NCBI GenBank assembly: GCA_041665005.1
Contig: JBAYJR010000001.1
Coordinates: 70,727 to 131,540 of the forward strand
DNA: 60,814 nt
Direction: 5' to 3'
DNA from: Candidatus Buchananbacteria bacterium
Lineage (GTDB): Bacteria; Patescibacteriota; Patescibacteriia; 2-01-FULL-39-33; JBAYJR01
The number at the start of each line of letters is the position of its first letter. Position 1 is the stretch's first letter. Below the pieces are notes generated by a model that did no database searches, was not told where the DNA came from, and saw only the letters and a list, made by a program, of their open reading frames with translations. The position numbers and the translations under genes were made by a program. Of this stretch, positions 4,931 to 26,617 are shown piece after piece.

Positions 4931-4934
4931 TAAT

Positions 4935-6361: not shown

Positions 6362-6366
6362 ATTTT

Positions 6367-8240: not shown

Positions 8241-8432
8241 CTAGGTGAATAATAATAGTAACATGATTATTCCCAACACAAATAATATTACTCCCAATCC
8301 CTGGGAGTCCTTGTTTTCTAGTATTGCTCCTGTAATTATTAAAACCAAGGCAATGGCTATTAAAAAGAATTTCATACAGCACATAAACAATATAGCCAAA
8401 AATAAAATTGAGAACTCGCCAAGTTTTTTCAT
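8241..8432 (-). CDS. small hydrophobic membrane protein, 63 aa
   Basis: ATG at 8432 follows AAGGAGG; the TTG at 8486 in the track is the -35 box TTGACA. Confidence 0.7.
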   Translation of the reverse strand: MKKLGEFSILFLAILFMCCMKFFLIAIALVLIITGAILENKDSQGLGVILFVLGIIMLLLLFT

Positions 8433-8555
8433 TGGATATTCCTCCTTTGTTTTTTCAAATTTAATCTTTTTAGTTAATTTTGTCAAGTCATAAAAAATCC
8501 CCCCTAGAATTATTTTTTAAATTCTAAGGGGGGGTTGGCGAGAGTATGACACTAG

Positions 8556-9290
8556 CTAATAAGAAATATACAATGATCCCCAAAATAGGAGACCAAAGAT
8601 TATGGCGAGGGATAATCCTTCGCCACCAAGCTTCTCGTTTTTTGTTGCTCTTGAACGGAAAATTATTACTATTCCAGTTATAAACAGTATAAGCGGAATT
8701 AAGGTGTAAAGCCTGTACACTACGAACAAATAATTAAAATACCAAGAGACGCATCCGTAGTAAAAAAGCAGGCAAATGGCCACGAGTATTATAAGCATTC
8801 CAATTATTTGTATCCCATCGCTAGGGATGGAACAAAGTATAGCTCCAAAAAGTAACGTTAGCCATAAAAGTATTGGTAAGAAAAAAGTAGGATCACCAAT
8901 GTCCTTTATTTGGTGGCCGCTGATTGCCGACAGCGATTTTTTCATTTCAATTTTACGTTGTTGGCTAATGGCAAGCGGTGACCGCGCCAGATAACTATTT
9001 ACTGTTTTTTCTAAACCGGGGTCAATATTAATCTTAACACCGTTGCTGTAGGTTTTGTTGAAATTCTCTCTAAGTTTTTCCCACATCGCTACTTGATAGA
9101 TGATGTCGGTTAACTCGTCGGAGTCAACTAAATCATCTTCTGCGCTTTTTTCTATTTCATAGATGATTTGTTGCTTGAAAGATTCCAGTTTTTGGATTTT
9201 TTCGGCTCGCTTGGTGGTTGTTGTCTGGTTTGCTGCCAGAGTTGTGATACTTAGTAATACAGCGATTAACAATAAAAGAATTTTTTTCAT
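8556..9290 (-). CDS. signal-peptide protein with C-terminal TM hairpins
   Basis: N-terminal signal peptide, helical soluble part, about 4 TM helices; AAGGAG SD. Confidence 0.75.
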   Translation of the reverse strand: MKKILLLLIAVLLSITTLAANQTTTTKRAEKIQKLESFKQQIIYEIEKSAEDDLVDSDELTDIIYQVAMWEKLRENFNKTYSNGVKINIDPGLEKTVNSYLARSPLAISQQRKIEMKKSLSAISGHQIKDIGDPTFFLPILLWLTLLFGAILCSIPSDGIQIIGMLIILVAICLLFYYGCVSWYFNYLFVVYRLYTLIPLILFITGIVIIFRSRATKNEKLGGEGLSLAIIFGLLFWGSLYISY

Positions 9291-9434
9291 TGTGCGTTTC
9301 TCCTTTTTTCTCTAAGGTTGTAAAGAGCATTTGATCGTATAGTATTTATTTATCAAATTTAGGGATTTTTGTCAAGGTCTTTGACTCTTGACAATATTTG
9401 GCTTTTTTATTATAATTAGCCTATCTTAATTTAA

Positions 9435-9551
9435 TTACCCATATTTCTGGATTATTCAGCTCCTGACTCTGCTAATTGCAGCAGCCCGCTGAATGAGATG
9501 AAAGAAATAGAGGCGTTTGCGATTTTCGCAAACTAACAAAAGGAAAAAAAT
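9435..9551 (+). promoter_or_regulatory. structured rpsB 5' leader (candidate S2 autoregulatory element)
   Basis: Nested stems TATTTCT/AGAAATA, ATTCAGC/GCTGAAT, CTGC/GCAG, then GAGGC and hairpin TTTGCG/CGCAAA. Confidence 0.5.
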
Positions 9552-10250
9552 ATGCAACAACCTACTTTGCTGGAATTACTCCAGTCGGGCGTTCATTTTG
9601 GCCACCAGGATTCACGCTGGCATCCTAAAATGAAACCCTACATTTTTGCCACCCGTAACGGTATTCACATTATTGATTTGGAAAAGACCCAAGCCAAGCT
9701 AAACGAGGCCACGTCTTTTATCCAAAAATTAGTGAGCACCGGCGGGGTTTTATTATTTGTGGGCACCAAAAAACAGGGCAAAGGCCTAGTTAAAGCCGCG
9801 GCCGAAAGCTGTGGCATGCCTTATGTGGTAGAACGTTGGCTGGGCGGTATTTTCACCAATTTTGCTAATATTAATCGCTTGGTCAAAAAATATTTAGGTT
9901 TAATTGATCAACAAAATTCTGGCGCCTTGGCCAAATATACCAAAAAAGAACAATCGCAATTTCAAAAAGAAATTAAAAAATTGCAAACTTTTTTATCCGG
10001 TTTAACCACCTTAAACAAATTGCCCCAAGCAGTGTTTATTTTGGATTTAAAAAAAGATAAGACGGCCTTAAATGAAGCACGCAAGAAAAAAATTCCAGTC
10101 ATTGCTATCTGCGATACCAATGTTAACCCCGATTTAGTGGATTATCCTATTCCCGCTAACGACGACGCCGTTAAAGCTATTGCTTTAATTACCAATTATC
10201 TGGCCTTAGCCGTTAATGAGGGCAAACAAATTGCCGAAAAAAAGGCTTAA
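9552..10250 (+). CDS. rpsB: 30S ribosomal protein S2
   Basis: GVHFGHQ, WHPKMKPYI, RWLGGIFTN, IPANDDA. Confidence 0.98.
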   Translation: MQQPTLLELLQSGVHFGHQDSRWHPKMKPYIFATRNGIHIIDLEKTQAKLNEATSFIQKLVSTGGVLLFVGTKKQGKGLVKAAAESCGMPYVVERWLGGIFTNFANINRLVKKYLGLIDQQNSGALAKYTKKEQSQFQKEIKKLQTFLSGLTTLNKLPQAVFILDLKKDKTALNEARKKKIPVIAICDTNVNPDLVDYPIPANDDAVKAIALITNYLALAVNEGKQIAEKKA

Positions 10251-10277
10251 GTAAAATTCAAAATTAAAAAATAAAAT

Positions 10278-11126
10278 ATGGATAAAAATTTAGTTGTTAA
10301 ATTGCGTGAACAAACCGGCGCGGGTATGTCTGATTGCTTAAAGGCTTTGCAAGAAAGTCAAGGCGATTTAGTTTTAGCCGCGGAAATTTTAAGGAAAAAA
10401 GGAATTACTAAAGCCGCTAAGCGCAGTGAGCGAGAAACTAAAGAAGGATTGATTAAGGTTTTAGTTACTGATCAAGGTAAAACTGGTTATTTAGCAGAAT
10501 TTAATGCCGAGACTGATTTTGTCGTGCGAAGTGAAAAATTTCAACAATTTGCCGAACAAGCTTTCGAATTATTAGTTGCCCAAAAATTAGATAATCGAGA
10601 CGAGTTACTGCAAACTAAATTGCTTAATAATACGGTAGCAGAAACTTTGGACAGCTTGAGTGGTATTATTGGTGAAAAGTTAGAAATTAAGCGGGTGGCC
10701 AAGCTAACCGCCAAGGGTTTAGTGGCAGCTTATACTCATAACAACAACAAGGTGGGAGTTTTGGTGGCCCTGGATTGGTCTGGTGATTTGGTTGATCAGA
10801 CGGCAGTGGATTATTTGGCCAAAGAAATTGCCATGCAGGTGGCTGCTTTGAACCCGGCTTATTTAGTGCCGGCCGAAGTGCCAGCCGAAATTGTGGCCAA
10901 AGAAAAAGAAATTTATCAAGAAGAATTAAAGCAACAAAATAAGCCAGAAAATATTTGGCCCAAAATTATTGAAGGCAAGTTACAAAAGCTTTATGCCGAG
11001 GTTTGTTTACTAAAACAGCCAAATATTAGAGAAGAAGAAAAAACGGTTGAACAAATTATTGCGGAATTATCTAAAAAATTAGGCGTGGAAATAACGGTGG
11101 CTAGCTTTATTAGATTTAAAATTTAG
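10278..11126 (+). CDS. tsf: elongation factor Ts
   Basis: LREQTGAGMSDC, NAETDFV, AMQVAA, PKIIEGK; follows rpsB. Confidence 0.97.
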   Translation: MDKNLVVKLREQTGAGMSDCLKALQESQGDLVLAAEILRKKGITKAAKRSERETKEGLIKVLVTDQGKTGYLAEFNAETDFVVRSEKFQQFAEQAFELLVAQKLDNRDELLQTKLLNNTVAETLDSLSGIIGEKLEIKRVAKLTAKGLVAAYTHNNNKVGVLVALDWSGDLVDQTAVDYLAKEIAMQVAALNPAYLVPAEVPAEIVAKEKEIYQEELKQQNKPENIWPKIIEGKLQKLYAEVCLLKQPNIREEEKTVEQIIAELSKKLGVEITVASFIRFKI

Positions 11127-11128
11127 TT

Positions 11129-11911
11129 ATGAAAATTATTGAAGTACAAATTACTCCTTGGGAACAAACGTACTTCTCAGAAGCTGGCTTATTTGAACCA
11201 AAAGTTGGCGATTTAGTAATAATTAAATTAGTGGAAGGTTTAGAGGTGGCTAAAGTTTTGGGTTTTAAAGAATTATCCGCGGCCGATTTTTCGGCGGTAG
11301 TGGAAAAAACTTCTTTAGAGCGCTTAGCTAACGCCGAGGATCAAAGAATTATTGAAGAAAATAAAACCCAGGCGGAGTTGGCGGTTGATTTTGCCCGTAA
11401 GGCGATTAAGCGTTACAATTTACCGATGAAACTGGTTGATGCTCATTTTTCGTTTGATGGTGTTAAAGCGATTTTTGCTTTTATTGCGGATGGTCGGGTT
11501 GATTTTCGTGAACTAGTCAAAGATTTAACGCGGCACTTTCATAAAAATATTCGGTTGCAACAATTAGGAGTGCGTGACGAAGCTCGGTTGTGTGGAGATT
11601 TTGGCGGTTGTGGCCGAGATTTATGTTGTCGCCGTAGTCAACAAGAGTTAAATAGTGTTTCTTCTGACTTAATGGAATTGCAACAAATCGCTCATCGTGG
11701 CTCTGATCGGATGACGGGTTTATGCGGGCGTTTACGTTGTTGCTTGGCTTATGAACAGGCCACCTATCAGGAATTAAGTAAAAAGTTACCCGCCTTAGGT
11801 AGCACGGTTAATACCGCCAAAGGTAAGGGGCAGGTGATTCGTTGGCACGTCTTAAAGGGTACGGTTGATGTTAAGGTTAATAGTGAAACAATTGTAGAAC
11901 ATAAAGTTTAA
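11129..11911 (+). CDS. PSP1-domain protein (RicT/YaaT family)
   Basis: ADGRVDFRELVKDL, RIRLQQLGVRDEA-like segment, CGRDLCC, GLCGRLRCCLAYE. Confidence 0.9.
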   Translation: MKIIEVQITPWEQTYFSEAGLFEPKVGDLVIIKLVEGLEVAKVLGFKELSAADFSAVVEKTSLERLANAEDQRIIEENKTQAELAVDFARKAIKRYNLPMKLVDAHFSFDGVKAIFAFIADGRVDFRELVKDLTRHFHKNIRLQQLGVRDEARLCGDFGGCGRDLCCRRSQQELNSVSSDLMELQQIAHRGSDRMTGLCGRLRCCLAYEQATYQELSKKLPALGSTVNTAKGKGQVIRWHVLKGTVDVKVNSETIVEHKV

Positions 11912-11953
11912 TTTTTATTATTTGTAGTTCAGTGCTAGAATATTAGTATACAT

Positions 11954-12472
11954 ATGCGCTATAAATTACCAACAATTTTAACAGTGTTACTACTAGCCTT
12001 GGTTTTGGTTGGCTTTAGCTGTGTTCGTAACCAAGTGGCTAATTCTAATGGAGTTGCTAATACTAATGGTAATAGCAATAGTGACAGTAATAGTAATAGC
12101 AACAGCAATCAAATCAGTAACCAGCCAGGGCAAAACGTGATTGATCTTTCGGATAAAAATGGTAAAGAGATAATTGTTAAAGTTGGTGATTTGTTGGTTT
12201 TGGATTTAGTTGGTAATATTAAAGAAAATCAAACAAAATATTATCAGTGGAACGCTAAGCCAATTCCTTCTTCGGTACCAGAAATTGTTTCTTTAATTAG
12301 CCACACCAATAGTACGGAAAGTCCAAAAATTAAAGAAGGGGAATGGGTTTCGCATTGGGAATTGCGAGTGGAAAAAGTTGGTGATTTTACTTTAAAGTTT
12401 GATTATCAGGGTTACAACTTAAATTTAAAACCCAAGCAGAGTTTTGAAATGCATATTATTAGTGTTAAATAA
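11954..12472 (+). CDS. lipoprotein with probable chagasin/I42 protease-inhibitor domain
   Basis: Lipobox LVGFSC, Asn/Ser linker, IIVKVGD...NQTKYYQW...VGDFTLKFDY pattern. Confidence 0.55.
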   Translation: MRYKLPTILTVLLLALVLVGFSCVRNQVANSNGVANTNGNSNSDSNSNSNSNQISNQPGQNVIDLSDKNGKEIIVKVGDLLVLDLVGNIKENQTKYYQWNAKPIPSSVPEIVSLISHTNSTESPKIKEGEWVSHWELRVEKVGDFTLKFDYQGYNLNLKPKQSFEMHIISVK

Positions 12473-12584
12473 GCTAAAGTGTTGGTTTTTGGCGCCTAAA
12501 TTTTATGTCCCTAAAGGGGCTTTTTTTTATTATTTTTTTTTGCTATAATATTTGCAAGTCTTAATCTAACTAAACTTGAATTTT

Positions 12585-13577
12585 ATGATTAAAATTGCAA
12601 TTAATGGTTTTGGTCGTATTGGCCGAGCCGCTTTTAAAATTGCCCATGAACAGCCCGGGGTTAAAATTGTGGCGATTAACGATTTAACGGACACTAAAAC
12701 GTTAGCTCATTTATTAAAATATGATACGGTTTATCGTAATTATGTCCCAGCGGTTAATTATGATGAAAAAAATATTATGATTGATCAGGCTAAGTATCCG
12801 GTTTACGCAATTAAAGATCCGGCTTTATTACCTTGGGGGGAACTGGGAGTGGATGTGGTTTTGGAATGCACCGGACGTTTTACAAAATTAGAAGAGGCCT
12901 CGTTGCATTTAAAAGCGGGGGCTAAAAAAGTAGTAATTTCGGCTCCGGCCAAAGGGGTGCCAACTTATGTTTTAGGGGTTAACGCGGATCAGTGGCAAGC
13001 CGAGGAAAAAGTTATTTCTAATGCTTCTTGCACCACCAATAGTTTAGCGCCAGCCGTTAAAGTACTGCACGAGGTTTTTGGCGTAAAAAAAGCCATTATG
13101 AGCACGGTGCATTCCTATACCGCTGATCAAAATTTGGTTGATGGGCCGCACAAAGATTTACGTCGAGCTAGAGCGGCCGCCCAAAATATTGTGCCGACGA
13201 CTACTGGCGCGGCCATCGCCGTAACCGAAACTATTACTGATTTAAAAGGCTTGTTTGACGGTTTGGCTTTACGGGTACCAACGGTTGCTGTTTCTTTATC
13301 TGACGTGACCATGGTGTTGGCTAAAAAGGTAACGGTGGCTGAGGTTAATCAAGCTTTAGCTGCTGCCGCGCAAGGCGAATTAAAAGGCATCTTGGCGGTG
13401 ACTAACGAAGAATTGGTTTCCTCGGATTTAATTGGTAACAACGCCTCATCAATTGTTGATTTATCTTTAACTAAGGTGGTGGACGGTGATTTAGTAAAAA
13501 TTATTTGTTGGTATGATAATGAATGGGGTTATTCGGTGCGTTTGGTAGAGATTGCCGAAATGATTGGTAAAAAATAA
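12585..13577 (+). CDS. gap: glyceraldehyde-3-phosphate dehydrogenase type I
   Basis: INGFGRIGR, ASCTTN, WYDNEWGY; start placed at ATG 12585. Confidence 0.98.
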   Translation: MIKIAINGFGRIGRAAFKIAHEQPGVKIVAINDLTDTKTLAHLLKYDTVYRNYVPAVNYDEKNIMIDQAKYPVYAIKDPALLPWGELGVDVVLECTGRFTKLEEASLHLKAGAKKVVISAPAKGVPTYVLGVNADQWQAEEKVISNASCTTNSLAPAVKVLHEVFGVKKAIMSTVHSYTADQNLVDGPHKDLRRARAAAQNIVPTTTGAAIAVTETITDLKGLFDGLALRVPTVAVSLSDVTMVLAKKVTVAEVNQALAAAAQGELKGILAVTNEELVSSDLIGNNASSIVDLSLTKVVDGDLVKIICWYDNEWGYSVRLVEIAEMIGKK

Positions 13578-13613
13578 GGCAGCTTTTTTTAAAAAAATAA
13601 AAATTTTTAAAAC

Positions 13614-13646
13614 AAAAAGCGTTCAAGCTTAATTTGGGCGCTTTTT
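13614..13646 (+). terminator. intrinsic terminator after gap
   Basis: AAAAAGCGTTCAAG/TTTGGGCGCTTTTT. Confidence 0.7.
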
Positions 13647-13715
13647 GCTTCATTGACAGTTTGATCGTTATCTGTTAATTTATCTACAAATATACAATCA
13701 ACAGGAGGACTTATT

Positions 13716-14558
13716 ATGTTATATTTTGAAGCTCTGGAACAGGCAGTCCCATGTCGTTATGAATTGAGTTGGCAGGCTGAACCACCAGCTTTAATTCTAA
13801 GGGTTAATCGTCAGCTAGTTTTTTTGCTTGAAAACCCCGATCAGGATGAAATTGCGGAGTTGGCAAAAGTCAACGAATTCAAAAATGATTTTTTAGCCAC
13901 TGCTGATAGTTTTGGTTTTGATGGTGTAGTTAAAAAAGTTGGGCTTAAAGGTGAATTCGTCGAGTATGAGATTGAAATCCCGAGAGTTAAAAAAGAATCC
14001 GGTACTTGCCCTATTTGTAGGGGTGCTAGTAAATTTTTCGCGGTTTGTGCCTATTGTAATAGTACGGACAAGACCTATAAGCATGACGAAAACAAGGTGC
14101 GGATGATTTCGGCCAGCTTAACTATACTTTTGCGGTTACTGAATTGGTCTGATCAAGAAATTAAGAGCAAGAGTATTCAGTTGTTAACCGTACAACCCAT
14201 TACTGCTCTGGGGGCTAATGGTGGTAGTATGTCGGGGATCTATAGTAAGTCTTTGGTGGCTTGGTTGGATAAAACTGATATTTTTGAGTTAAGCCAGGCG
14301 ATGATCGCGGCTATGCAAACATGCTGGATACAGCTGTTGCAGGAGACCGCGACAAAATTTTTTGTCAGTCTCAATGGTGATGGCAAGTTAAGTATTACTT
14401 GTCCGGGCAATTCTTGTGGTTTAGATCCGGGAGGCTTGCAAACAAAACAGGGCTACGAATTTAGTAGTCACAACGCAGACTCAGTTTGGCAACAATTAAC
14501 ATTGTTGGTTGGTTTAGCGGTTTTGTACGACCAAGCCCGGCAAGCTAATCAAAAATAA
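13716..14558 (+). CDS. orphan protein with CxxC pairs
   Basis: CPICRG...CAYC, CPGNSCG, HNADS; AGGAGG SD; TTGACA upstream. Confidence 0.72.
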   Translation: MLYFEALEQAVPCRYELSWQAEPPALILRVNRQLVFLLENPDQDEIAELAKVNEFKNDFLATADSFGFDGVVKKVGLKGEFVEYEIEIPRVKKESGTCPICRGASKFFAVCAYCNSTDKTYKHDENKVRMISASLTILLRLLNWSDQEIKSKSIQLLTVQPITALGANGGSMSGIYSKSLVAWLDKTDIFELSQAMIAAMQTCWIQLLQETATKFFVSLNGDGKLSITCPGNSCGLDPGGLQTKQGYEFSSHNADSVWQQLTLLVGLAVLYDQARQANQK

Positions 14559-15122: not shown

Positions 15123-15626
15123 ATGAGTAAAAGAGGCGAATCTCAAGATATTAAGCTTAGTTATTATTGGCTGAAAGTTATTTTGGCCATGCTGGCTTTG
15201 GCCCGTCGGTATAAGTTTAATCTATCAAGAACTTTTGGTAGGGATTTTAAGAAGTTTAGAGATTTAGCCAGAAAAGAAGAATTTCTGTGCAGTTGGGTAG
15301 TTAACAAAAAGGTGGTTGATACAGACTTAGAATTAGACCGGATATCGTTTAGGCCTTTTTTTATTGGCCGCCGAAAAGTCAGTAATAGTAAAGTCGTAGT
15401 GGATGAATTTCTGCTCGGGTCAGACCGCTGTTTATATGTCTGGCACACAGTATATGTAGTTAAGTTTAATAAAGCTTATCCTTTTGCGATTAAGCCCCGG
15501 GTGTATATGGCAGTTTCTAGTAAAATAGAAAATTTCATTTATACAGACATAGAACTTTATGGGATAAAACCAAAAGTTTTCCGGGAAATATTTGAATATA
15601 TGAAATATTGGCCAGACAGGTTCTAA
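15123..15626 (+). CDS. orphan basic protein
   Basis: AAGGAGGT SD; TTGACA upstream; 167-aa ORF. Confidence 0.62.
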   Translation: MSKRGESQDIKLSYYWLKVILAMLALARRYKFNLSRTFGRDFKKFRDLARKEEFLCSWVVNKKVVDTDLELDRISFRPFFIGRRKVSNSKVVVDEFLLGSDRCLYVWHTVYVVKFNKAYPFAIKPRVYMAVSSKIENFIYTDIELYGIKPKVFREIFEYMKYWPDRF

Positions 15627-15651
15627 CTCTACGATGAATTTAACAAAAAAT

Positions 15652-15680
15652 AAACCCGAGTTTTTAAAACTCGGGTTTTT
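15652..15680. terminator. bidirectional terminator
   Basis: AAACCCGAGTTTT/AAAACTCGGGTTT between convergent genes. Confidence 0.75.
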
Positions 15681-15702
15681 CTTATTAAGCAAAAAAATAA
15701 TT

Positions 15703-16623
15703 TTATCTTTTTTTCATTGACCATAAGTGCCAATCAACCACTAATGGAGAGGCAATAAAAATGGAAGAGTAAGTACCAATTAAGATACCAAAAGACATTG
15801 CTAGGGCAAAGTTTTTAGTACTAGCTCCACCAAAGAAGTATAAAGCGAGTACCACTAAAGCGGCGGTTAAGGAAGTGTTGATGGAACGAACAATAGTGTC
15901 ATTAACGGAATGATTGACGACCTCTAAGAAAGTTCCTGGTAGTTGCTTTTTTAAGTTTTCTCTAATTCGGTCAAAAACTACAATAGTGTCATGTACAGAA
16001 AAGCCCAGTAAAGTTAAGAGTGCGGTGACAAAATAACTGTCTACTTCAATGCCAGCAAAATGGCCAAGTAAGGAAAACAAACCAACGGTAATTAAAGTAT
16101 CGTGAGCCAAAGCGATTACCGCCGCTACGCCGTATTTCCAGGAAGGTACTGGACGCGAAACTTGGCGAAAGGCAAAGGCGACATACAAAATAATGGCCAG
16201 TAAGACAATTATCATGGCACCCCAAGTTTTTTGTTTTAATTCAGCCGAAATAGTAGGGCCGATGGTAGTAAAGCTGGACTCTTCAATTTTAGCATTGGTT
16301 TGGCTGTTAGCCGACTTAGCGTTAAGTGTAGCAATGATTTGTTGATGAGTTTTTTCATCCACTTCTTTAAAGCGTAAAACCATTTCATCTTCGGCTACTG
16401 GCTGGGCTAAAATTACGCCCAAGTCTAATGGTGCTAAGGTGCTGGTTATTTGTTCGCTGGTGGCCGGAGCTTGATTAACGAATTTTATTTGCAGTAGTGA
16501 ACCGCCGGTAAAATCTAGGCCATACTTTAAACCCCAAACGCTTATACTAATAATACCAACTAAAGCGAGTAAGATAGAAATTGAGTAATTAATCCAACGT
16601 TTTTGAATGATTTTATATTCCAT
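15703..16623 (-). CDS. secF: protein translocase subunit SecF
   Basis: GLDFTGGS, LLTLLGFSVHDTIVVFDRIREN, TIVRSINTS, GTYSSIFIA. Confidence 0.97.
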   Translation of the reverse strand: MEYKIIQKRWINYSISILLALVGIISISVWGLKYGLDFTGGSLLQIKFVNQAPATSEQITSTLAPLDLGVILAQPVAEDEMVLRFKEVDEKTHQQIIATLNAKSANSQTNAKIEESSFTTIGPTISAELKQKTWGAMIIVLLAIILYVAFAFRQVSRPVPSWKYGVAAVIALAHDTLITVGLFSLLGHFAGIEVDSYFVTALLTLLGFSVHDTIVVFDRIRENLKKQLPGTFLEVVNHSVNDTIVRSINTSLTAALVVLALYFFGGASTKNFALAMSFGILIGTYSSIFIASPLVVDWHLWSMKKR

Positions 16624-16635
16624 AAAAATATTTAG

Positions 16636-18381
16636 TTATTGTTGTTCGGTTTTCCTTCTAACACCATATAAGCGATGGTGCTGGGTCCATTGCCAGTTAG
16701 AAATTAAACGAATAAATTGTCTAGTAATAAAGATGGCGGAGAAAATTGAGACCAAAATACCAATGGCTAAAGTAATAGCAAAACCTTTGATAATACTGGA
16801 GCCAAACCACATCAAGACAGCACAGGTGATTAAACTGGAAATATTGGAATCGCGAATAGAAGTCCAAGCGCGTTTAAAGCCTTCGTCAATGGCAATGGCC
16901 GTAGGTTTACCACGGCGTAGTTCTTCTTTAGTGCGTTCAAAAATTAAAACATTAGCGTCTACAGCCATACCAACAGAAAGGATAAAACCGGCAATGCCCG
17001 ATAAGGTTAAAGTAATTGGCCAGGGAGTAAAGACGCTTAATTTAAAGATTGCCAAAACTACCGCGGCGTAGATTAATAAAGCTAAGACGGCTAAAAATCC
17101 TGGCAAGAAGTAAACGGCTAACATAAAGACTGCCACTATGGCCATACCGATCAAGCCAGCTTTAATGCTTTGTTGCAAGGCTTTAGCACCCAACGAAGCG
17201 CCAATGGTTTGTTGGCTGACTAGTTTTATTGGCACCGGTAAAGCGCCGGCGTTTAAACGTTGGGCTAAGCGTTTGGCTTCGGTTAAACCAAATTGTCCAG
17301 AGATAACCGCCTTGCCGTCAGTAATTGGTTCTTCTACGTTAGGCGTAGAAATTGGCGTGCCATCTAAAAAGATAGCGACGGGTTTGCCAACATTGCGGGT
17401 AGTAATTTCGGCAAACAATTTAGCGCCTTCAGCATCAAATTCTAAAGAAACTTGTGGGGCGTTAGTATTGGATTCAAACTGAACCAAGGCTTTCTTTAAA
17501 TTTTTGCCGGTTAAGTTAGTCCCGCGCCATTCACCAATTGCGTAGTCGTTGGCGCTTTTGGTTTTAATTAAAATATGGGCACCATTAACTTCTAAAGTAT
17601 CACCAGTACCTTTGGTGGCTAAACGTTTAATTATGTGATAGCCAAAATCTGTTTTGACTAATTGAGGGTAAATTTTTCCGTCGGTTAATTGGTCAAATAA
17701 AACTTTTTCAAATTCTGGTACAAACTGACCTTTTTTAGCAAAACCCAAATCTCCACCAGTATCTTTAGAACCAGCGTCTTCGGAATACTGTTTAGCTAAG
17801 GCGGAAAAATCGGCTCCGGGCACTAAAACTTTTTTTAATAAATCTTTGGCTTTAGTTTCGGCGCTAAGATTGTAAGTATCAATTTCTTTTCGTTGATCAA
17901 CTGTCAAAGCGGTCTCGCCTTGTTCTTTAAATTCTAAGAGGGGGGTTTCGCCAATTTGTTTAATGGCCTCGTTAACATCTTTGATGCCAGCTAGGTCAAC
18001 GATTACTCGCCAGTGTTCACCCGCTTTTTGAGTTTGAACGATTGGCTCGGCTACACCAAAAGCGTTAACCCGGCGTTCTACTACATCGCGGACTCCTTCT
18101 AAAGAAGAATTTTTATCACTCTCGGAAATTTTACTGGTGTCTGCCTCGTAAATTAAATGAGTGCCGCCGACCAAGTCTAAGCCTAACCGCCAGTTGATCT
18201 TGGAAAACTGTGGGAGGCCCCAGCCTAGCTTGTTATTTAACCAAGACATAGAGTTGTCCCAGTATTTTGGATAAACCAAGCTTCCGGAAATGACCGCTAG
18301 TACGATAATTCCTACAATTTTCCAGCGTAGATTAGCGCGTGGTCCTCGCCATAAACTTGATTGGTTTCGTTTTTCTGACAT
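16636..18381 (-). CDS. secD: protein translocase subunit SecD with inserted parvulin PPIase domain
   Basis: LGLDLVGG, RRVNAFGVAEP, LNAGALP, GMAVDANVLIFER; insert DFSALAKQYSED...GGDLG...GYHII. Confidence 0.96.
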   Translation of the reverse strand: MSEKRNQSSLWRGPRANLRWKIVGIIVLAVISGSLVYPKYWDNSMSWLNNKLGWGLPQFSKINWRLGLDLVGGTHLIYEADTSKISESDKNSSLEGVRDVVERRVNAFGVAEPIVQTQKAGEHWRVIVDLAGIKDVNEAIKQIGETPLLEFKEQGETALTVDQRKEIDTYNLSAETKAKDLLKKVLVPGADFSALAKQYSEDAGSKDTGGDLGFAKKGQFVPEFEKVLFDQLTDGKIYPQLVKTDFGYHIIKRLATKGTGDTLEVNGAHILIKTKSANDYAIGEWRGTNLTGKNLKKALVQFESNTNAPQVSLEFDAEGAKLFAEITTRNVGKPVAIFLDGTPISTPNVEEPITDGKAVISGQFGLTEAKRLAQRLNAGALPVPIKLVSQQTIGASLGAKALQQSIKAGLIGMAIVAVFMLAVYFLPGFLAVLALLIYAAVVLAIFKLSVFTPWPITLTLSGIAGFILSVGMAVDANVLIFERTKEELRRGKPTAIAIDEGFKRAWTSIRDSNISSLITCAVLMWFGSSIIKGFAITLAIGILVSIFSAIFITRQFIRLISNWQWTQHHRLYGVRRKTEQQ

Positions 18382-18521
18382 GTTGAGAAAAGATAATAAT
18401 TAAAGCACGGTTATTTTAACAAATGCTAAATAATTGGTCAAATCGGTAGGTCACTAAAGTTGATTTGACAGTATCTACTTTTTATGATATAATAAAACAT
18501 ATTAAATTAAACTGTTAATGT

Positions 18522-19667
18522 ATGAGTATTTTAGATAAAGTGCGCCAAAGCAAATTTTTGGAAGAAATTGGTCAATTTAGCCCAACTCAGACCTTAAATT
18601 CTTTGTTTGCCCGTTTAAATTCTAAGGAACGAGAAGTATTAATTAGGCGTTTTGGCTTGTTTGGTAAGCCCAAAGAAACCCTGGAACAAATTGGGCAGTC
18701 TTTTAATTTGACTCGTGAACGGGTACGGCAGATAGAAAGACTAAGTGTTAAAAAAATTCGGGAGATTGAAGAACTAAAAGGAGAAGTTAGAAAAATAGAA
18801 AAATTAGTGGGACATTTACTGGGGCAGCATGGTGGCTTAATGTCACAGGAGCATTTTTTGGAAAGTTTTTTAGGTTACCTTGAAGAAAGCGAAGAACACG
18901 AGGCTTCCTTGCTTTTTTTGTTGCGTGAGGTTTTAAAGGACAAAGTAGAACAGCTAAAAAGTAATAATTTTTGGAATGACTTATGGAAGTTGAAAGAAGT
19001 AGAAGTTACTTTTGCTGAACAGGTAATCAACGAGTTGATTAGGATTGTTGAACGTAATGCCAAGCCTTTAAAATTTAGTGAGTTGTTAGCTGAACTGCGA
19101 CAGTCGGAATTTTATCAAAATAATAAGTCTCGTTTTTTGGCCTTAAATCCTTTGTTGGATGAGGCGGATTTAGATCAGGAATTAGAAAAGATTATTTTAA
19201 CTAATTTACGGTCTAGCAAAAAAATTAAAAAGAATTTGTTTGGTGAATGGGGTTTGGCCAGCTGGGGCAGCGTCGTGCCCAAGCGGATTAATGATAAAAT
19301 CTATTTAGTGCTAAAACGCGCCGGGGTGCCGTTACATTTTGCTGAAATTGCCCGGTTAATCAATGAGGCTAAGTTTGATGATAAAGTGGCTTATCCGGCG
19401 ACGACTCATAATGAATTAATTTTGGACGAAAAATATGTTTTGGTCGGGCGGGGTATTTACGCTTTACGTGAGTGGGGTTATAATTCTGGTACGGTGTCCG
19501 AAGTAATTGCCGAAATTTTAAGGAAATCCGGCAAACCTTTAAGTCGGCCGCAAATTATGGTAGAGGTTTTAAAACAACGTCAGGTTAAGCCAACCACAGT
19601 TTATTTAGCGTTAATGAATAAGAAAATTTTTAAAAAAGTAAACAGTAGTGAGTTTGCTTTAGTTTAA
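18522..19667 (+). CDS. protein with N-terminal sigma70 region-4 HTH and C-terminal winged-HTH (RNAP delta/HARE-HTH-like) domains
   Basis: KEREVLIRRFGL...ETLEQIGQSFNLTRERVRQIE; C-terminal YLVLKRAGVPLHFAEIA and AEILRKSGKPLSRPQI. Confidence 0.75.
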   Translation: MSILDKVRQSKFLEEIGQFSPTQTLNSLFARLNSKEREVLIRRFGLFGKPKETLEQIGQSFNLTRERVRQIERLSVKKIREIEELKGEVRKIEKLVGHLLGQHGGLMSQEHFLESFLGYLEESEEHEASLLFLLREVLKDKVEQLKSNNFWNDLWKLKEVEVTFAEQVINELIRIVERNAKPLKFSELLAELRQSEFYQNNKSRFLALNPLLDEADLDQELEKIILTNLRSSKKIKKNLFGEWGLASWGSVVPKRINDKIYLVLKRAGVPLHFAEIARLINEAKFDDKVAYPATTHNELILDEKYVLVGRGIYALREWGYNSGTVSEVIAEILRKSGKPLSRPQIMVEVLKQRQVKPTTVYLALMNKKIFKKVNSSEFALV

Positions 19668-19677
19668 TAATTTTTCT

Positions 19678-20994
19678 ATGGGGGATTTTATTGCTCAAAT
19701 TTTAGCCCAAGGCTCCAGTCCGCTTAATGCTGTCTGGTTAATTTTTTTGTATGGCGGTTGGCTAATTATTTTAATCGCCATTGCTTATGGTATTTATCAA
19801 ATTTGGTTATTTAATAAGCAAGGTGCCTACGCGGCTAGTGTTAGTTATTTAACCTTAGCCATTGACGTGCCTAAACAAAATGAACAAAGTCCTAAAGCCG
19901 TGGAACAAATTTTTGCGCATTTATCCGGTGCGCATAAACCACCTGATTGGTATGAAAAGTATTTTTTAGGAATGTTTCAGTTGGCTTATTCTTTTGAACT
20001 AATTAGTATTAATGGTAAGATTCAATTTATTGTGCGAACGCCAGCCGATTATCATGATTTAGTCGAAGCGGCGGTATATGCGCAATATCCTGATGCGGTT
20101 ATTTCTGAAGTTAATGACTATGCTAAAGATAATTTTTTTAAAGTGCCAAACCCCGAAATGGATTTGTGGGGAACGGAATTTGCCATTTATAATAAAGATT
20201 ATTTTCCCATTCGGACTTATCCGGAATTTGAACATATTTTGTCTGGCGAACTTAAAGATCCGTTAACGCCAATGTTGGAAACTTTAGGCGGTTTAAAAAA
20301 CGGTGAGCAAGTCTGGATGCAGTTAATTTTAACGCCGACTGGTAATGATTGGCAAAAAAAAGGTTTGGAGGCAATGAATAAATTATCAGGCATTAAAGTA
20401 GCGCCGAAAAAAAGCAAATTAGCTAAAAATTTTGGTTTAATTGGTGGAGAAATTAATAGTTTATATAATGAAACGGTTAAGCAGGCCTTAAGTGGTTTTG
20501 GCGAGAGCAGTGCGCCAGCCAGTAAAAGCAAATCAGATGAAGCGGGTATGAAGCTATTGGCGCCACACGAACGTTCGGCGGTGGAAGCGATTCAACGAAA
20601 AATTAGTAAAATTGGTTACTCGGTTAAGTGGCGGGTGATTTATCTGGGTAAGAAAGAAATTTTTTCAGCCGCCCGGGTAATTACGCCTTTGGTGGGGGCA
20701 ATTAAACAATTTAATTCCAGCGAGTTTAATGGTTTTGCTCCACAAAATGCTAAATATGGTATTAAGGTTGGTCATCATCCTTGGGCTAAAAAAATTAAAG
20801 TGAAAAAGCAAAATAAGATAATGCGCGCTTATCGCGATCGCGATCGGGAAATTGGCCATCCGGGCTTTATTTTAAACACCGAAGAATTAGCGACGATTTG
20901 GCATTTTCCGGCTATTTTGGTTAAGGCACCCCAAGTCTCTAAATCCGAAGCCAAGCATGCCGAACCTCCTTCTTCTTTGCCGCTTGGTCGTTAA
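19678..20994 (+). CDS. membrane-anchored hypothetical protein, partner of the downstream ATPase
   Basis: N-terminal TM; AVEQIFAHL, SFELIS, AQYPDA, LNTEELATIWHFP pattern recalled from CPR proteins. Confidence 0.7.
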   Translation: MGDFIAQILAQGSSPLNAVWLIFLYGGWLIILIAIAYGIYQIWLFNKQGAYAASVSYLTLAIDVPKQNEQSPKAVEQIFAHLSGAHKPPDWYEKYFLGMFQLAYSFELISINGKIQFIVRTPADYHDLVEAAVYAQYPDAVISEVNDYAKDNFFKVPNPEMDLWGTEFAIYNKDYFPIRTYPEFEHILSGELKDPLTPMLETLGGLKNGEQVWMQLILTPTGNDWQKKGLEAMNKLSGIKVAPKKSKLAKNFGLIGGEINSLYNETVKQALSGFGESSAPASKSKSDEAGMKLLAPHERSAVEAIQRKISKIGYSVKWRVIYLGKKEIFSAARVITPLVGAIKQFNSSEFNGFAPQNAKYGIKVGHHPWAKKIKVKKQNKIMRAYRDRDREIGHPGFILNTEELATIWHFPAILVKAPQVSKSEAKHAEPPSSLPLGR

Positions 20995-21024
20995 TTAAAT
21001 ATTTGTTAAAATATAAACAAAAAC

Positions 21025-22830
21025 ATGACTGAAGAAATAGATCCAAAAATAACTACGGAAGCAACCGAGCGTTATCAACCAAAAGAAGATGACGTAACAG
21101 TTTTTGCGGAAACAAATTTTCGTAACCGTAAGGTAAAATTTGGCATTAAACGTCGCGACCGTCGCCAGCACATGTACGTAATTGGTAAAAGCGGTGTGGG
21201 TAAATCAACCATGTTAGAAAACATGATTGTTTCGGATATTATGCGCGGTGAAGGCGTAGCGGTGGTGGATCCGCACGGCGATTTGGCCGAAAAAATTATG
21301 CAATACATCCCATCTTGGCGGATTAATGACGTAGCCTATTTTAATCCCGCTGATTTGTCGTTTCCGGTGGCGTTTAATCCTTTAGAAAGCGTGGATGAAG
21401 CCCAAAAACATTTAGTGGCCTCGGGAGTGGTGGGAGTTTTTAAAAAAATCTTTGCGGAAAGTTGGGGCCCTCGTTTGGAATATTTATTGCGCAATGCTAT
21501 TTTAGCTTTATTAGATTACCCCGGTTCTACCTTGTTAGGGATTATGCGTATTTTAGTAGACAAAGGTTATCGAGCTAAAGTTTTAGAAAAAGTTAAAGAT
21601 CCGGTGGTTAAATCATTTTGGGTGGATGAATATGCTAAATATCCCGATCGTTTTCAGGTGGAGGCGGTAGCGCCAATTCAAAATAAAGTGGGTCAGTTTT
21701 TATCTAATTTTTTAATCCGTAATATTGTCGGTCAGGTTAAATCCACCATTGATATGCGGGATATTATGGATAACCGTAAAATTTTGGTGATTAATTTGGC
21801 CAAAGGCCGGATTGGCGAAGACACCACGGCGATGTTAGGGGCAATGTTGGTTACTAAAATTCAAATTGCGGCCATGGAGCGTATTCAAATCCCCGAAAAA
21901 GAACGCAAGGATTTTTATTTATATGTTGATGAATTTCAAAATTTTGCTACGGATAGTTTTGCCACGATTTTATCCGAAGCGCGTAAGTACCGTTTAAATT
22001 TAATAATCGCTCATCAATACATTGAACAGTTAAAAGAAGAAGTTTATTCGGCGGTTTTTGGTAATGTTGGCACTTTGGTTTGTTTTCGGGTGGGTCCAGC
22101 GGATGCGGAAAAATTAATCACGGAATTTTCGCCAATTTTTATTGAAGAGGATTTAGTTAATTTAACTAAGTATGATATTTATTTAAGATTGCTAATTGAC
22201 GGGGTGGCCTCAGACCCTTTTTCGGCGACCACTTTGCCACCGTTGAGTGATGATTTAAAAGCGGGTAATCTTGATAAAATAATTAAAATTTCGCGTGAAC
22301 GTTATGCTGTCCCGCGAGAAGTAATTGAAGAAAAGATTTCGCGTTGGACTAGTATTAAAGATGAAACTTCAGTCAGCCGGCCGGCTAACGCTAGTTACAG
22401 TAAAGAATCAAATTTTAATCAAAAAGCTAAAGCGGCGGTAGCGGGAGTTGGTAGTGATTCAGAAATTAAGACCGCGTTTAAAACAGTTTGTAGTTTGTGC
22501 GGTAAAGAAACCGAGGTTTATTTTGCACCGGATGGAGTGAGACCGGTTTATTGTAAGGATTGTTTAAAAAAGACCCGTGAAGAAAAAATTGCCAAAGCCA
22601 AACTGCCGACGGCTAGCGATCGACCAAGGGTTGGACCAGCCTCGCCCAAGGCAATTAGTTTAAACGAGGCCGTCCAAAAACCGCCAGTTAATTTTGCGCC
22701 CAGTCAGCCCGAACCAGCAGTTAAAGCTCAACCATTAACAGCACCAGAGATTATTAAGGAGCAGTCAGTTGATGATAATTTTACAGCGAAAGCAAAAAAA
22801 ATAGTTTCCGGTCAAACCGTTAAGTTTTAA
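21025..22830 (+). CDS. VirD4/TraD/HerA-like coupling ATPase with C-terminal CxxC-x17-CxxC domain
   Basis: Walker A GKSGVGKS, DPHGD, Walker B LYVDEFQN, ILSEARKY; CSLCGKETEVYFAPDGVRPVYCKDC. Confidence 0.88.
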   Translation: MTEEIDPKITTEATERYQPKEDDVTVFAETNFRNRKVKFGIKRRDRRQHMYVIGKSGVGKSTMLENMIVSDIMRGEGVAVVDPHGDLAEKIMQYIPSWRINDVAYFNPADLSFPVAFNPLESVDEAQKHLVASGVVGVFKKIFAESWGPRLEYLLRNAILALLDYPGSTLLGIMRILVDKGYRAKVLEKVKDPVVKSFWVDEYAKYPDRFQVEAVAPIQNKVGQFLSNFLIRNIVGQVKSTIDMRDIMDNRKILVINLAKGRIGEDTTAMLGAMLVTKIQIAAMERIQIPEKERKDFYLYVDEFQNFATDSFATILSEARKYRLNLIIAHQYIEQLKEEVYSAVFGNVGTLVCFRVGPADAEKLITEFSPIFIEEDLVNLTKYDIYLRLLIDGVASDPFSATTLPPLSDDLKAGNLDKIIKISRERYAVPREVIEEKISRWTSIKDETSVSRPANASYSKESNFNQKAKAAVAGVGSDSEIKTAFKTVCSLCGKETEVYFAPDGVRPVYCKDCLKKTREEKIAKAKLPTASDRPRVGPASPKAISLNEAVQKPPVNFAPSQPEPAVKAQPLTAPEIIKEQSVDDNFTAKAKKIVSGQTVKF

Positions 22831-23408: not shown

Positions 23409-23483
23409 TTAGGCTTTATCAGTCACCAAAGTAAAATTGGTGGCTTTTTTTTAGCTTTTTTGCTAAGATATAATCAATTATTT

Positions 23484-24126: not shown

Positions 24127-25185
24127 ATGTCTAAAAATTGCGCTGAGTTAACTTTTAAACTAGCCTCCCTCAAACAACTTAAACAACAGTTTGATTTAGA
24201 ATTATCTAGTCTACCTAAAACAGGCAAGACAGAGGATTTAGCTTTAGTCAGAGAAGCTAAAGTCAAATTAAATCAAACCCTCCAAGACCTCCAAAATGAA
24301 TTATGGCTAGAAACTCCCGAATTAACACGAGAAAACCTTAAAGCCCAATATGAATTCCAAGCAGACCTCCTCCGTAAAAGCAACCTCCTAAAAACCCTCT
24401 CCACTGGTGAATTAGGTATTGAAGCAATCGATAACAAAGAATACCCCATACCCACCCTAGAACAGATTGAAGAAATAATGCTAGAAAAAAGAGATTTCTT
24501 CGAAACCAAAATAAAACAAGGCTTTGTTAAATTAGTCATCGTTCCCTTTGGCTTACCAATTAAATCCCTAATAGAGGCTTATGACAATGCCCTAATGGAA
24601 CATCACCGGCAAGGCAAACTCTTTAATACCCAAAATCAACCCTTAGGGCTTAATAAAAAGATTGGCACAAAGTATATTTTTGATTATGTTAATTTTGTAA
24701 AGGCCGAAGCCACAGGAGACTTAGTATATTTCCCCAAAGAATTCTCCGATAACCACCAAGGTAAAACCAAGCAAGAACTTTTGCCCACCCAAGCTTGGCA
24801 AGTCCTACTACTTGAAGACTTGCCCGATATTCCAGATAAAGGCAAGGGCAAAACCGTTAATGGTCGTAAGCAACCAGAAGCTAACCAATCACCCAACGAT
24901 TATCTTAAACAACTCCAAACCGACCAGTATAAAGGTGAACGAGGCTTAACCCCAGAATCCTGGCTAGTTTATGGCTTAAGTCACTTAGAACAAACCGATC
25001 AAGTGATTGATGACTGGGAGGGTTCGGGCAAGGGTTGCTGGTTAATTGATAGTTTTTCTAAAGAAACTGGCCGCGTGCCGAACGCCAGTTTCTACCGTGG
25101 CAGTTTACATGTCAGCTTGAGTCGGGGTATTCCGGGCGACCCTGATTCCTACGGTGCCAGCCGTTTTGCAGTAAGTATTTCTTGA
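24127..25185 (+). CDS. hypothetical protein with DGR-target-like (CLec-type) variable C-terminus
   Basis: Ends VPNASFYRGSLHVSLSRGIPGDPDSYGASRFAVSIS; N-terminal ~50 aa shared with the next ORF. Confidence 0.6.
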   Translation: MSKNCAELTFKLASLKQLKQQFDLELSSLPKTGKTEDLALVREAKVKLNQTLQDLQNELWLETPELTRENLKAQYEFQADLLRKSNLLKTLSTGELGIEAIDNKEYPIPTLEQIEEIMLEKRDFFETKIKQGFVKLVIVPFGLPIKSLIEAYDNALMEHHRQGKLFNTQNQPLGLNKKIGTKYIFDYVNFVKAEATGDLVYFPKEFSDNHQGKTKQELLPTQAWQVLLLEDLPDIPDKGKGKTVNGRKQPEANQSPNDYLKQLQTDQYKGERGLTPESWLVYGLSHLEQTDQVIDDWEGSGKGCWLIDSFSKETGRVPNASFYRGSLHVSLSRGIPGDPDSYGASRFAVSIS

Positions 25186-25266
25186 TCTTTGGTTTTTATT
25201 TTTTAATCACTTTATGTTTAAATCTTGCGTTGAATTAAAATCCGAACTAGCCTCCCTCAAACAACT
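24158..25266 (+). repeat. 22-bp exact direct repeat pair in the 5' ends of two adjacent ORFs
   Basis: AACTAGCCTCCCTCAAACAACT at 24158-24179 and 25245-25266. Confidence 0.95.
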
Positions 25267-26617
25267 CAAAGCAGAGTTTGATTTGGAATTGAGTAAAGTA
25301 AAAAGCTCAGACTCTAAAAAGTCTGATGATTTGGTTTTGGTTAGAGCAGCTAAGGCAAAACTAAAACAAGCCTTAATGATTCGGGAATTTACAGGGGTGT
25401 TCTTAGAAGAAGCTTATGGAGAATATGGTGAGCGTTGTGTGGAGTTGCTAAATGAGGCATTAAAACAAGGAGTAGATAAAGATTCTATCGCTAATGAATT
25501 AAAGCATTTAGATTCTCGGTCCGCCTATGACTTAAGAGATGAATTATTAGATCTGGAAGCAGACGTGATAAATTTAGCCCGTGGTTTAAAAGGATTAGAT
25601 TCTCCCGCCGCTTGGGATTATCGGAAGAAATTAATAACTTCTTGGAATGATTCAGAAAAGTGGACTAATTTGGCAGTTAGTTTAAATGGTTTAGATTCTC
25701 GGCTGGCCTGGAATGCTAGGACAGAAATCTTAAAAAAGATCGGGGCTGATTTTTTTCTGATTCACAGCTTAGAGGGGCTTGATTCTTCGGCGGCTTGGGC
25801 TTTTCGGCAAAGATTAGTAGAGCAAAAAGTGGACAAGGATTATTTGGTAGATACTCTAACTGGTTTGGATTCTCGGTTGGCCTGGCTGTGGCGGGAAAAA
25901 TTATTAGCTGAAGGGGCAATCAAATCCAGACTAGCTTACAGTCTTGATGGTTTAAATTCCCCGCCGGCTTGGGAGTTTAGAGAAAAATTGCTTGGCTTAG
26001 GGTTGAGTCATGGTGATTTTGTTCGAACCTTAACGGGTTTAGATTCTGATCAGGCTTGGGAATGGCGAGAAAAATTTTTTAATGAGAATATAAATAAGAA
26101 CATACCAGTTGATGTTTGGGCTGATTTGGCCAGCAGTCTAACTGGTCTAGATTCGCCAAAGTCCTGGGAGTTTAGGAATAAATTATGGGATCCGGCCTGG
26201 CTTGGTCTGTCATCACAAAATCGATTGCAATCTTTTATCTTTAGCAGTTTAGCAAATAGCCTAAAGGATTTGGATTCCCCGCTAGCCTGGGAGTTTAGAG
26301 AAAAGTTATTTGCCAAAATAGCCTCGTCAGACAAGGCGACACGAAAGGTTATGCAACTGGATTTTGATTTGCTTATTTATAGCTTGGTCGGATTGAATTC
26401 TAAACGCGCTTGGGATTTTAGAGAAAACTTTTTTATTTTAGGAGACTACCCCAAGGAGCTAGCGGAGAGTTTGGCTGGTTTGGGTTCTGAACAAGCTTGG
26501 GAGTTTCGGAAAAAACTATCAGCCGCTGGAGCGCCTAAAGCGGTTATGATCAAAGGTTTACTGGTTGATTTTAAAACTTTTGTTAAATATAATAATAAAA
26601 CCGAGCAACCTATTTAA
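25214..26617 (+). CDS. tandem-repeat alpha-solenoid protein (11 repeats)
   Basis: 11 copies of L-x-x-S-L-x-G-L-D-S-x-x-A-W-x-x-R. Confidence 0.8.
   Translation: MFKSCVELKSELASLKQLKAEFDLELSKVKSSDSKKSDDLVLVRAAKAKLKQALMIREFTGVFLEEAYGEYGERCVELLNEALKQGVDKDSIANELKHLDSRSAYDLRDELLDLEADVINLARGLKGLDSPAAWDYRKKLITSWNDSEKWTNLAVSLNGLDSRLAWNARTEILKKIGADFFLIHSLEGLDSSAAWAFRQRLVEQKVDKDYLVDTLTGLDSRLAWLWREKLLAEGAIKSRLAYSLDGLNSPPAWEFREKLLGLGLSHGDFVRTLTGLDSDQAWEWREKFFNENINKNIPVDVWADLASSLTGLDSPKSWEFRNKLWDPAWLGLSSQNRLQSFIFSSLANSLKDLDSPLAWEFREKLFAKIASSDKATRKVMQLDFDLLIYSLVGLNSKRAWDFRENFFILGDYPKELAESLAGLGSEQAWEFRKKLSAAGAPKAVMIKGLLVDFKTFVKYNNKTEQPI

Follow-up and report, generated by a model that had tools for sequence, protein, structure and literature searches.

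A cysteine-capped N-terminal hairpin shared by diverse binding proteins of a Patescibacterium, and its association with a peptidase-vWA protein and an AAA_5 ATPase

Patescibacteria genomes are minimal, yet in the groundwater representative considered here about 5% of the genes belong to a single family. Two of them are neighbours in the window, as we call the entire 60,814-nt stretch of DNA that was analysed (C1:70727-131540 of a 953,887-bp Candidatus Buchananbacteria assembly of 13 contigs, 98.9% complete, 38% GC): gene 1, encoding a protein with a hypervariable C-terminus akin to that of diversity-generating retroelement (DGR) targets, and gene 2, encoding an alpha-solenoid protein. Both products start with the same short helical module, called the handle in the following, which occurs in 50 open reading frames (ORFs) at 21 loci among the roughly 950 genes of the genome, always at the N-terminus (residues 1 to ~62) and in front of at least six different bodies. 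As a new observation, this family is tied, by co-occurrence statistics and by gene order, to a pair of genes for a protein combining a peptidase with a von Willebrand factor A (vWA) domain and for an AAA_5 (MoxR-like) ATPase. That the cysteine-capped hairpin couples a repertoire of sensors or binders to this machine is the reading we favour, at a probability of roughly 45%.

A common N-terminal hairpin on different bodies

Residues 1-53 of the gene 1 product align with residues 1-55 of the gene 2 product with 30/55 identical positions (BLASTP, E 1e-9), while beyond the first ~55 residues BLASTP returned no other significant alignment, in agreement with a sequence-only reading of this DNA which had pointed to adjacent paralogs with a common N-terminal module and unrelated C-termini. 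On the DNA level, the similarity extends over 78 nt with 81% identity and begins 1 nt before the ATG, and thus concerns a coding, protein module and not a shared upstream element. The 22-bp exact match noticed earlier between the two gene starts is found where it had been placed and has six copies in the genome, all within N-modules of the family; it is simply the most conserved core of the module. Local gene conversion was considered as the source of this match and rejected, with an N-module identity of 0.515 for array neighbours versus 0.529 for distant genes.

The family was collected with the first 60 residues as query, followed by an iterated hidden Markov model (HMM). The resulting count, with several C-terminal partners in this and in other Patescibacteria, bears out the idea of a modular family in which a constant helical N-module is placed on different recognition domains (six body classes here and further partners elsewhere), and is at odds with a module confined to the two window genes. 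The genes are organized in arrays of one to five with body classes mixed within arrays, and the family HMM found the handle in no long protein of the genome, solely at the N-termini of the 50 binders. Within the genome the residues M1, C5, L12, L38 and K45 are invariant and R42 is nearly so; in a broader alignment which includes other genomes the cysteine is the only invariant residue. AlphaFold2 (AF2) models of both window proteins predict a two-helix hairpin with about 25 residues per helix. The hairpin is amphipathic with heptad-like hydrophobic seams, and the single invariant cysteine is placed at its open end. The model confidence of the handle is below that of the bodies, with pLDDT 71-89 for the gene 1 helices (residues 5-27 and 35-59) and a low 47-73 for those of gene 2 (residues 5-31 and 37-60), where a disordered linker at residues 54-62 follows, which fits an independent, exposed module.

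The N-module is 0.53 identical between body classes and 0.58-0.59 within them, and the hairpin-loop alleles LPxTGK, DSKKS and SPNKP are spread across classes 0, 1 and 3, evidence of module shuffling. Codon position 3 is the least conserved in the N-module (identity 0.58, compared with 0.83 at position 2), which together with the onset of similarity at the start codon indicates purifying selection on the protein. The handle is thus a protein module under common constraint which has been recombined onto different bodies.

As had also been claimed from the sequence, neither window gene encodes a signal peptide, and none of the 50 family members has a signal peptide or a transmembrane segment: the maximal 19-residue Kyte-Doolittle window within residues 1-45 reaches 0.89 over all members, compared with 2.0-2.4 in the neighbouring YkuD, DedA and membrane proteins. 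The complete products of genes 1 and 2 match no Pfam family, and with E values up to 10 the handle produced merely a sub-threshold match to V-SNARE in Pfam; an F-box or another known adaptor was discarded, with no Pfam match at this threshold. An LPxTG motif at residue 29 is present in 13/50 handles versus 4/901 other ORFs; a role as sortase substrate was nevertheless rejected, as most handles are devoid of the motif, as it is placed in an N-terminal loop and as the genome is without a sortase gene (PF04203).

Clustering of the C-terminal parts distinguished the bodies. Class 0, with 21 copies that are 52-72% identical to each other, comprises a ~300-aa body with a hypervariable tail and includes gene 1. 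Its AF2 model is of high confidence (pLDDT 92, pTM 0.88); Foldseek searches of PDB and BFVD gave nothing below E 1, and thus also no C-type lectin. Homologues carry names of Patescibacteria. Class 1 (nine copies) consists of seven-bladed WD40 propellers (Pfam E 5e-64), class 2 (eight copies) of WG repeats (WG_beta_rep, Pfam E 2e-58), class 3 (six copies) of a ~185-aa body with a hypervariable tail of its own, class 4 (three copies, gene 2 among them) of alpha-solenoids and class 5 (two copies) of repeats resembling leucine-rich repeats (LRRs). That gene 2 encodes a solenoid, as previously proposed, is substantiated by a direct-repeat family (D1) with an 87-nt period and 11 repeats, by an all-alpha AF2 model (overall pLDDT 82, above 90 in the paired short helices) and by best PDB matches to the PC-repeat solenoids of Rpn2/Rpn1 (Foldseek, TMq 0.45-0.48, E 6e-3). 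The gene has two paralogues in the genome, and all three solenoid genes are located directly 3' of a class-0 gene. Its GLDSxxAW..R repeats have distant relatives (P0159-P0166) only in fusions with dTMP-kinase-like P-loop or AAA_5 domains, as in Corallococcus, a hint that this type of solenoid repeat is used in the cytoplasm and coupled to an NTPase.

Outside this genome the handle is rare. Among 1.84 billion representative proteins its profile matched only 54, nearly all at residue 1, with WD40, WG repeats, RNI-type LRRs, two bodies bearing a variable region (VR) and several unknown domains as partners. Within the class, 8/401 genomes encode it, with 50 copies in the present genome, nine in another (G243) and one or two in the others. 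Directly upstream of a vWA and AAA_5 gene pair at a further locus (L033/L034, G021:C1), positions 13224-14336 encode a 370-aa protein which begins MSLNCSKAVSKLKAY and is missed by the handle HMM; the present profiles may thus not reach all members of the handle family. On two unrelated contigs (L024 and L028), genes for an AAA_14/DUF4143 ATPase and Bro-N proteins interleave with handle-bearing DGR targets.

Retroelement ancestry of the hypervariable tails

The DGR-like nature of gene 1, suspected early on, is confirmed by the adenine-type composition of its tail and by homologues elsewhere that are proven DGR targets. In the last ~110-115 nt of 17 close class-0 paralogues, 0/36 conserved columns are A, as compared with 219/512 (43%) in the body; 27/31 highly variable columns fall on codon positions 1-2, and at the variable columns A ranks with the most frequent bases. 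The A content amounts to 14.7% in the VR versus 36% in the body. Homologues in other Patescibacteria are 35-45% identical and mostly begin with the same cysteine-bearing hairpin. One such locus (L020) encodes a template repeat (TR, 5679-5791) with two VRs, where every TR/VR mismatch is at a TR adenine, and an adjoining split reverse transcriptase (RT); in L024 and L028, bAvd and RT genes are found beside handle-type target genes, and a VR with a cognate TR that differs from it at TR adenines only is present in L024 too.

The present genome itself did not yield such a cassette. RVT_1 (PF00078) has no match at E<=1, while control genomes do match; the RT and Avd-like proteins of L020 found nothing below E 0.3 in this genome (tblastn), and a search of the whole genome with the VR profile (nhmmer) retrieved family genes only and no TR-like non-coding copy. 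In a 13-contig assembly, an RT or a TR may lie in unassembled DNA. Family genes are located at three contig ends (C4 83898-85714 of 85920, C8 1-434 and C10 51186-51905 of 52272); the assembly thus breaks within the family, and an RT/TR cassette may adjoin in the missing DNA.

Active rewriting of the tails from one TR was rejected. Third codon positions are no more alike in the VR (identity 0.70) than in the body (0.69), and the columns that are never A differ by 0.22 on average among paralogues, equal to the body and with a distance that correlates with body distance. The non-adenine skeleton has thus drifted as much as the body, which argues against VRs that are being rewritten from one template. 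At the variable VR columns, even the class-0 paralogues closest to each other show differences of 0.56-0.63, with 0.73 as the expectation for random draws and 0.21 as the difference of these paralogues at third codon positions, that is at synonymous-type sites. With regard to population variation of the VR, the one run found for the source metagenome is kept as assembler contigs, in which rare variants are dropped, and it covered the VR with the genome's own contig only. Judged from these column statistics, the adenine signature would be a heritage of a DGR-targeted ancestor, and the 21 copies would not currently be rewritten from one template. The lineage appears to have given up variation by a retroelement in favour of 21 germ-line paralogues, and would thus be a natural example of such a change in a family of DGR targets.

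At a further locus (L038, jgi 3300029286, positions 1-13000 and 15196-21110), class-0-like genes, nine or more in number, share another leader (MSEQF...KINP.D.EVP) and are without the cysteine-bearing hairpin. This array adjoins a split RT and the gene of an HExxH-vWA protein and is ~2.3 kb away from a VirD4-like gene, an integrase and type IV secretion system (T4SS) pilin genes; the DGR may be part of a mobile element here.

A peptidase-vWA protein and an AAA_5 ATPase as candidate partners

In one array of the genome (C2:8749-13513), two WD40 genes, a VR gene and a solenoid gene are followed by an AAA_5 gene, a 74-aa ORF and a vWA gene. The ATPase (C2:13686-16619) has 977 aa and a Walker A motif GDTGSGKT (Pfam E 5.5e-11, 43 bits with a cut-off of 22), while the vWA protein of 1105 aa (C2:17017-20334) combines an HExxH motif near the N-terminus with a C-terminal DNSGS, the metal ion-dependent adhesion site (MIDAS); the pair is single-copy in the genome. 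The Pfam VWA model itself does not match these proteins; a profile of the C-terminal domain matched nothing but vWA/I-domains in PDB (TRAP with E 6e-4, vWA domains of anthrax-toxin receptors, MIC2 and integrin alpha-M). Among six aligned proteins of the handle neighbourhoods, five possess DxSGS (the copy of locus L029 ends at the locus edge), as do those of L038, G314 and G243, and the Walker A motif is present in 6/6 ATPases, with AAA_5 also matched in L020, L029, L028 and L031. N-terminal to the vWA domain, either HExxH or Transglut_core is found.

The gene order recurs elsewhere. L029 carries, on one strand and with gaps of 7-83 nt, a class-0 gene, the AAA_5 gene, five handle genes and the vWA gene, with 45% (AAA_5) and 37% (vWA) identity to the proteins of the present genome. 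In L020 and L024 an RT gene, a gene for an HExxH-vWA protein, handle-bearing targets and AAA_5 follow each other; in L028 and L031 the targets adjoin genes for a transglutaminase-core vWA protein and AAA_5, and in G314 and G243 handle genes are directly beside the vWA gene. Among the 401 genomes of the class the vWA family is found in 20, the handle in eight and both in five (odds ratio 42, Fisher p 9e-6).

The reading we favour is based on this association and on analogy with vWA-MoxR conflict systems. The handle, a free-standing two-helix hairpin with the invariant cysteine at its start, would serve as a protein-protein coupling module by which interchangeable binders, such as DGR-derived lectin-like heads, WD40 and WG propellers, solenoids and LRR-like arrays, could plug into one common partner. 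The best candidate for this partner is the single-copy pair of a vWA protein with a peptidase domain (HExxH or transglutaminase core) and an AAA_5 ATPase, which would engage a ligand-bound binder through the handle and then might trigger or remodel the peptidase output. The family with its architecture and DGR ancestry, and its co-occurrence and adjacency with the vWA/AAA_5 pair, are observed; physical contact via the handle, a cytoplasmic location and a role in sensing are what we infer. A number of findings weigh against this coupling. Only 1/21 loci of the genome adjoins the vWA/AAA_5 pair; 3/8 handle-positive genomes, which are fragmented assemblies, lack a vWA match, and 15 vWA-positive genomes have no detectable handle. 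A handle-like segment is absent from the AAA_5 and vWA proteins (hhalign probability <1%), so that homotypic pairing of the type of effector-associated domains (EADs) is not supported. A third component of the vWA-MoxR-associated protein (VMAP) type has no Pfam match in the handle proteins or in small neighbouring ORFs, and PADLOC holds no defence-system model for any of the parts, the handle included. The handle-less array of L038 beside a vWA gene raises the possibility that the vWA link belongs to the body or the DGR and not to the handle. WG repeats and DGR lectin-like heads are, moreover, usually extracellular in other bacteria (general knowledge; PMC8144416).

This last point favours the main rival view, which we consider rather unlikely. 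Here the handle would act as a non-classical tag for export or targeting, read by an envelope ATPase such as the VirD4-like ATPase of the window with its membrane partner, and the binders would be adhesins or effectors, displayed on or delivered from a presumably epibiotic cell. Delivery by this ATPase, encoded in the unit upstream of gene 1 (Pfam matches to TrwB_AAD_bind, T4SS-DNA_transf, TraG-D_C and zf_Tbcl_2), had been proposed as a possibility. None of the 50 proteins carries a Sec signal, an N-terminal hairpin on polymorphic C-termini is, as generally known, paralleled by the PE/PPE and LXG families, the DGR target array of L038 stands beside T4SS genes, and in three genomes a VirD4-like gene is found at most 4 kb from a handle gene, in the window (1.3 kb), in G243 (an orthologous pair with 54% identity and one gene between) and in G028 (3.8 kb). 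With 3/~39 handle loci within 4 kb and ~0.7 expected by chance (Poisson p ~0.03), the link of the ATPase to the handle family is suggestive at most; the other 36 loci are not near such a gene. The genes of the 601-aa VirD4-like protein and of an 848-aa fused paralogue are core, with two copies in 10/10 genomes checked, some of which have a single handle gene or none. In the window, the DedA, VR and solenoid genes stand apart from the ATPase unit, with a terminator-like hairpin between the two. Coupling proteins of T4SSs are generally known to read C-terminal signals, no WXG100 or LXG match was found in Pfam at E up to 10, and canonical WD40 propellers and Rpn2-like solenoids are typically cytoplasmic. 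The proposed VirD4-like ATPase is probably not the right partner.

The handle could also do no more than self-associate, into a four-helix bundle that is perhaps locked by the cysteine, with homo- and heterodimers providing avidity or combinatorial specificity and no dedicated machine involved. The amphipathic hairpin with its heptad-like seams, the position of the invariant cysteine and the mixed-class tandem arrays, which would favour co-expression, are in line with this proposal, as are Foldseek matches of the N-terminus to hairpins of histidine-kinase dimerization and phosphotransfer (DHp) domains and to designed helix-loop-helix dimers, which are weak and not significant (E>1). Self-association as the whole of the function seems doubtful to us, as it leaves the co-occurrence and adjacency with vWA/AAA_5 unexplained; it is compatible with coupling and not exclusive of it. 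A far less credible idea is that of a module without common function, either a leader inherited by serial duplication and now and then shuffled in an exon-like manner, or a region conserved for translation initiation. The family is for the most part specific to this lineage (50 copies here versus 0-9 in 400 other genomes of the class) and array neighbours are no more alike than others, as such a leader would have it, but the conservation of the protein sequence in front of six unrelated bodies, and also in distant Patescibacteria, invariably at the N-terminus and with the invariant cysteine, is difficult to reconcile with it, and so are the start of the similarity at the start codon and the low conservation of codon position 3.

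If the favoured coupling to the vWA/AAA_5 pair is extended, an epibiotic-type bacterium with a genome of ~1 Mb would run an innate-immunity-like repertoire of ~50 germ-line binders on one vWA/MoxR-like machine, where, after loss of the retroelement, amplification and strong diversifying selection at former adenine codons would have replaced 'somatic' hypermutation. We regard this extended scenario as speculative and rather improbable.

Relation to known systems and further features of the window

Mtd from phage BPP-1 and TvpA from Treponema are the prototypes of DGR targets. The class-0 proteins resemble DGR targets in the position of the VR at the extreme C-terminus, in homologues located beside bAvd and RT genes, and in local VRs that are depleted of adenine and vary at codon positions 1-2. 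They differ in that no RT, Avd or TR was detected in their own assembly, which holds 21 germ-line paralogues instead, in that the class-0 model has no Foldseek match to C-type lectins, and in that the same handle is also borne by non-DGR bodies. DGR targets of RT clade 2 found in candidate phyla radiation (CPR) bacteria have been described as devoid of recognisable transmembrane or other domains and localisation signals, with a role that is open (Roux et al. 2021, PMC8144416). Such hypervariable proteins now gain a defined and searchable N-terminal domain common to DGR and non-DGR binders, and what had been hypervariable proteins of unknown nature becomes a three-part system open to testing.

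NTP-dependent conflict systems of the vWA-MoxR type are often linked to DGRs (Kaur, Burroughs, Iyer, Aravind 2020, PMC7159879), and 'antigen sensors' diversified by DGRs have been found beside MoxR ATPases, with targets that carry uncharacterised N-terminal extensions (Dore et al. 2024, PMC10907252). In common with these systems, a MoxR-like AAA_5 protein and a peptidase-bearing vWA protein with MIDAS adjoin the DGR targets and binders described here, and the sensor-like repeats (WD40, LRR, HEAT-like) are of the kinds that such systems use. In contrast, a search for VMAP was negative in Pfam, the vWA protein carries no fused variable domain, the place of the third component is taken by an entire family of handle-bearing binders scattered over 21 loci, and the host is an ultra-small Patescibacterium and not a multicellular bacterium. 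vWA-MoxR/DGR sensor systems, described mainly in multicellular bacteria, would thereby be extended to ultra-small symbionts.

With EAD1-10 and the bacterial Death-like adaptors (PMC7159879, PMC8195603), the handle shares the architecture of a small non-enzymatic, all-helical terminal domain with many partners per genome and with vWA-MoxR contexts. Unlike EADs, for which a second copy on a core component is defining, no such copy was found for the handle, which is fused to binding (sensor) domains instead of enzymatic effectors and has no Pfam match. With the hairpins of type VII substrates (PE/PPE, LXG, WXG100) it has in common the N-terminal helix-turn-helix on a polymorphic family so large that it accounts for several percent of the genes, and the lack of a Sec signal, but WXG100 and LXG do not match in Pfam, and WxG and YxxxD/E are not conserved across handle classes. 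We know of no type VII secretion machinery in Patescibacteria, and a search for it was not made here.

The features of the two genes and of their surroundings are compiled below.

Positions of the features described in the text (window numbering unless a locus is named)
Feature	Position	Strand	Remarks
Gene 1	24127-25185	+	ORF of 352 aa
Handle of gene 1 (aa 1-60)	24127-24306	+	Cys5, helix 5-27, LPKTG loop, helix 35-59; family HMM match at residues 1-61, E 1e-27
LPKTG of gene 1	24211-24225		residues 29-33, hairpin loop
Class-0 alpha/beta body of gene 1	24307-25066	+	conserved; fold without known relative
Hypervariable VR-like C-terminus of gene 1	25067-25181	+	nhmmer; equals C1:95793-95907; fossil DGR signature
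Gene 2	25214-26617	+	ORF of 467 aa; 28 nt after gene 1
Handle of gene 2 (aa 1-55)	25214-25378	+	BLASTP; residues 1-54 match the family HMM with E 4e-21
Alpha-solenoid body of gene 2	25379-26617	+	11 repeats, each ~29 aa long (GLDSxxAWEFRxKL), placed at 25505-26545
22-nt exact DNA match	24158-24179 and 25245-25266	+	string comparison; codes for LASLKQL in the helix 1 core
Membrane protein (438 aa) and VirD4/TrwB-like ATPase (601 aa)	19678-22830	+	ATPase at 21025-22830
Sigma-70 promoter	18465-18493		perfect 12/12 consensus with extended -10 TG; ahead of a 381-aa ORF
Terminator-like hairpin	23421-23445	+	between YkuD and DedA genes; 9-bp stem and T run; consensus scan
AAA_14/DUF4143 and Bro-N genes, L024	8414-9718, 457-1293, 6478-7326
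AAA_14/DUF4143 and Bro-N genes, L028	6384-7592, 9004-9990

The 381-aa ORF behind the sigma-70 promoter opens the unit of membrane protein, VirD4-like ATPase and YkuD genes. Apart from these genes, the window contains two 39-nt direct repeats (54724-54762 and 54805-54843), 85% identical and 81 nt apart, in the intergenic region after an ORF that ends at 54496, and a T-box leader (Rfam RF00230, 117 bits) at 57174-57443, located upstream of a 196-aa ORF (57511-58101).

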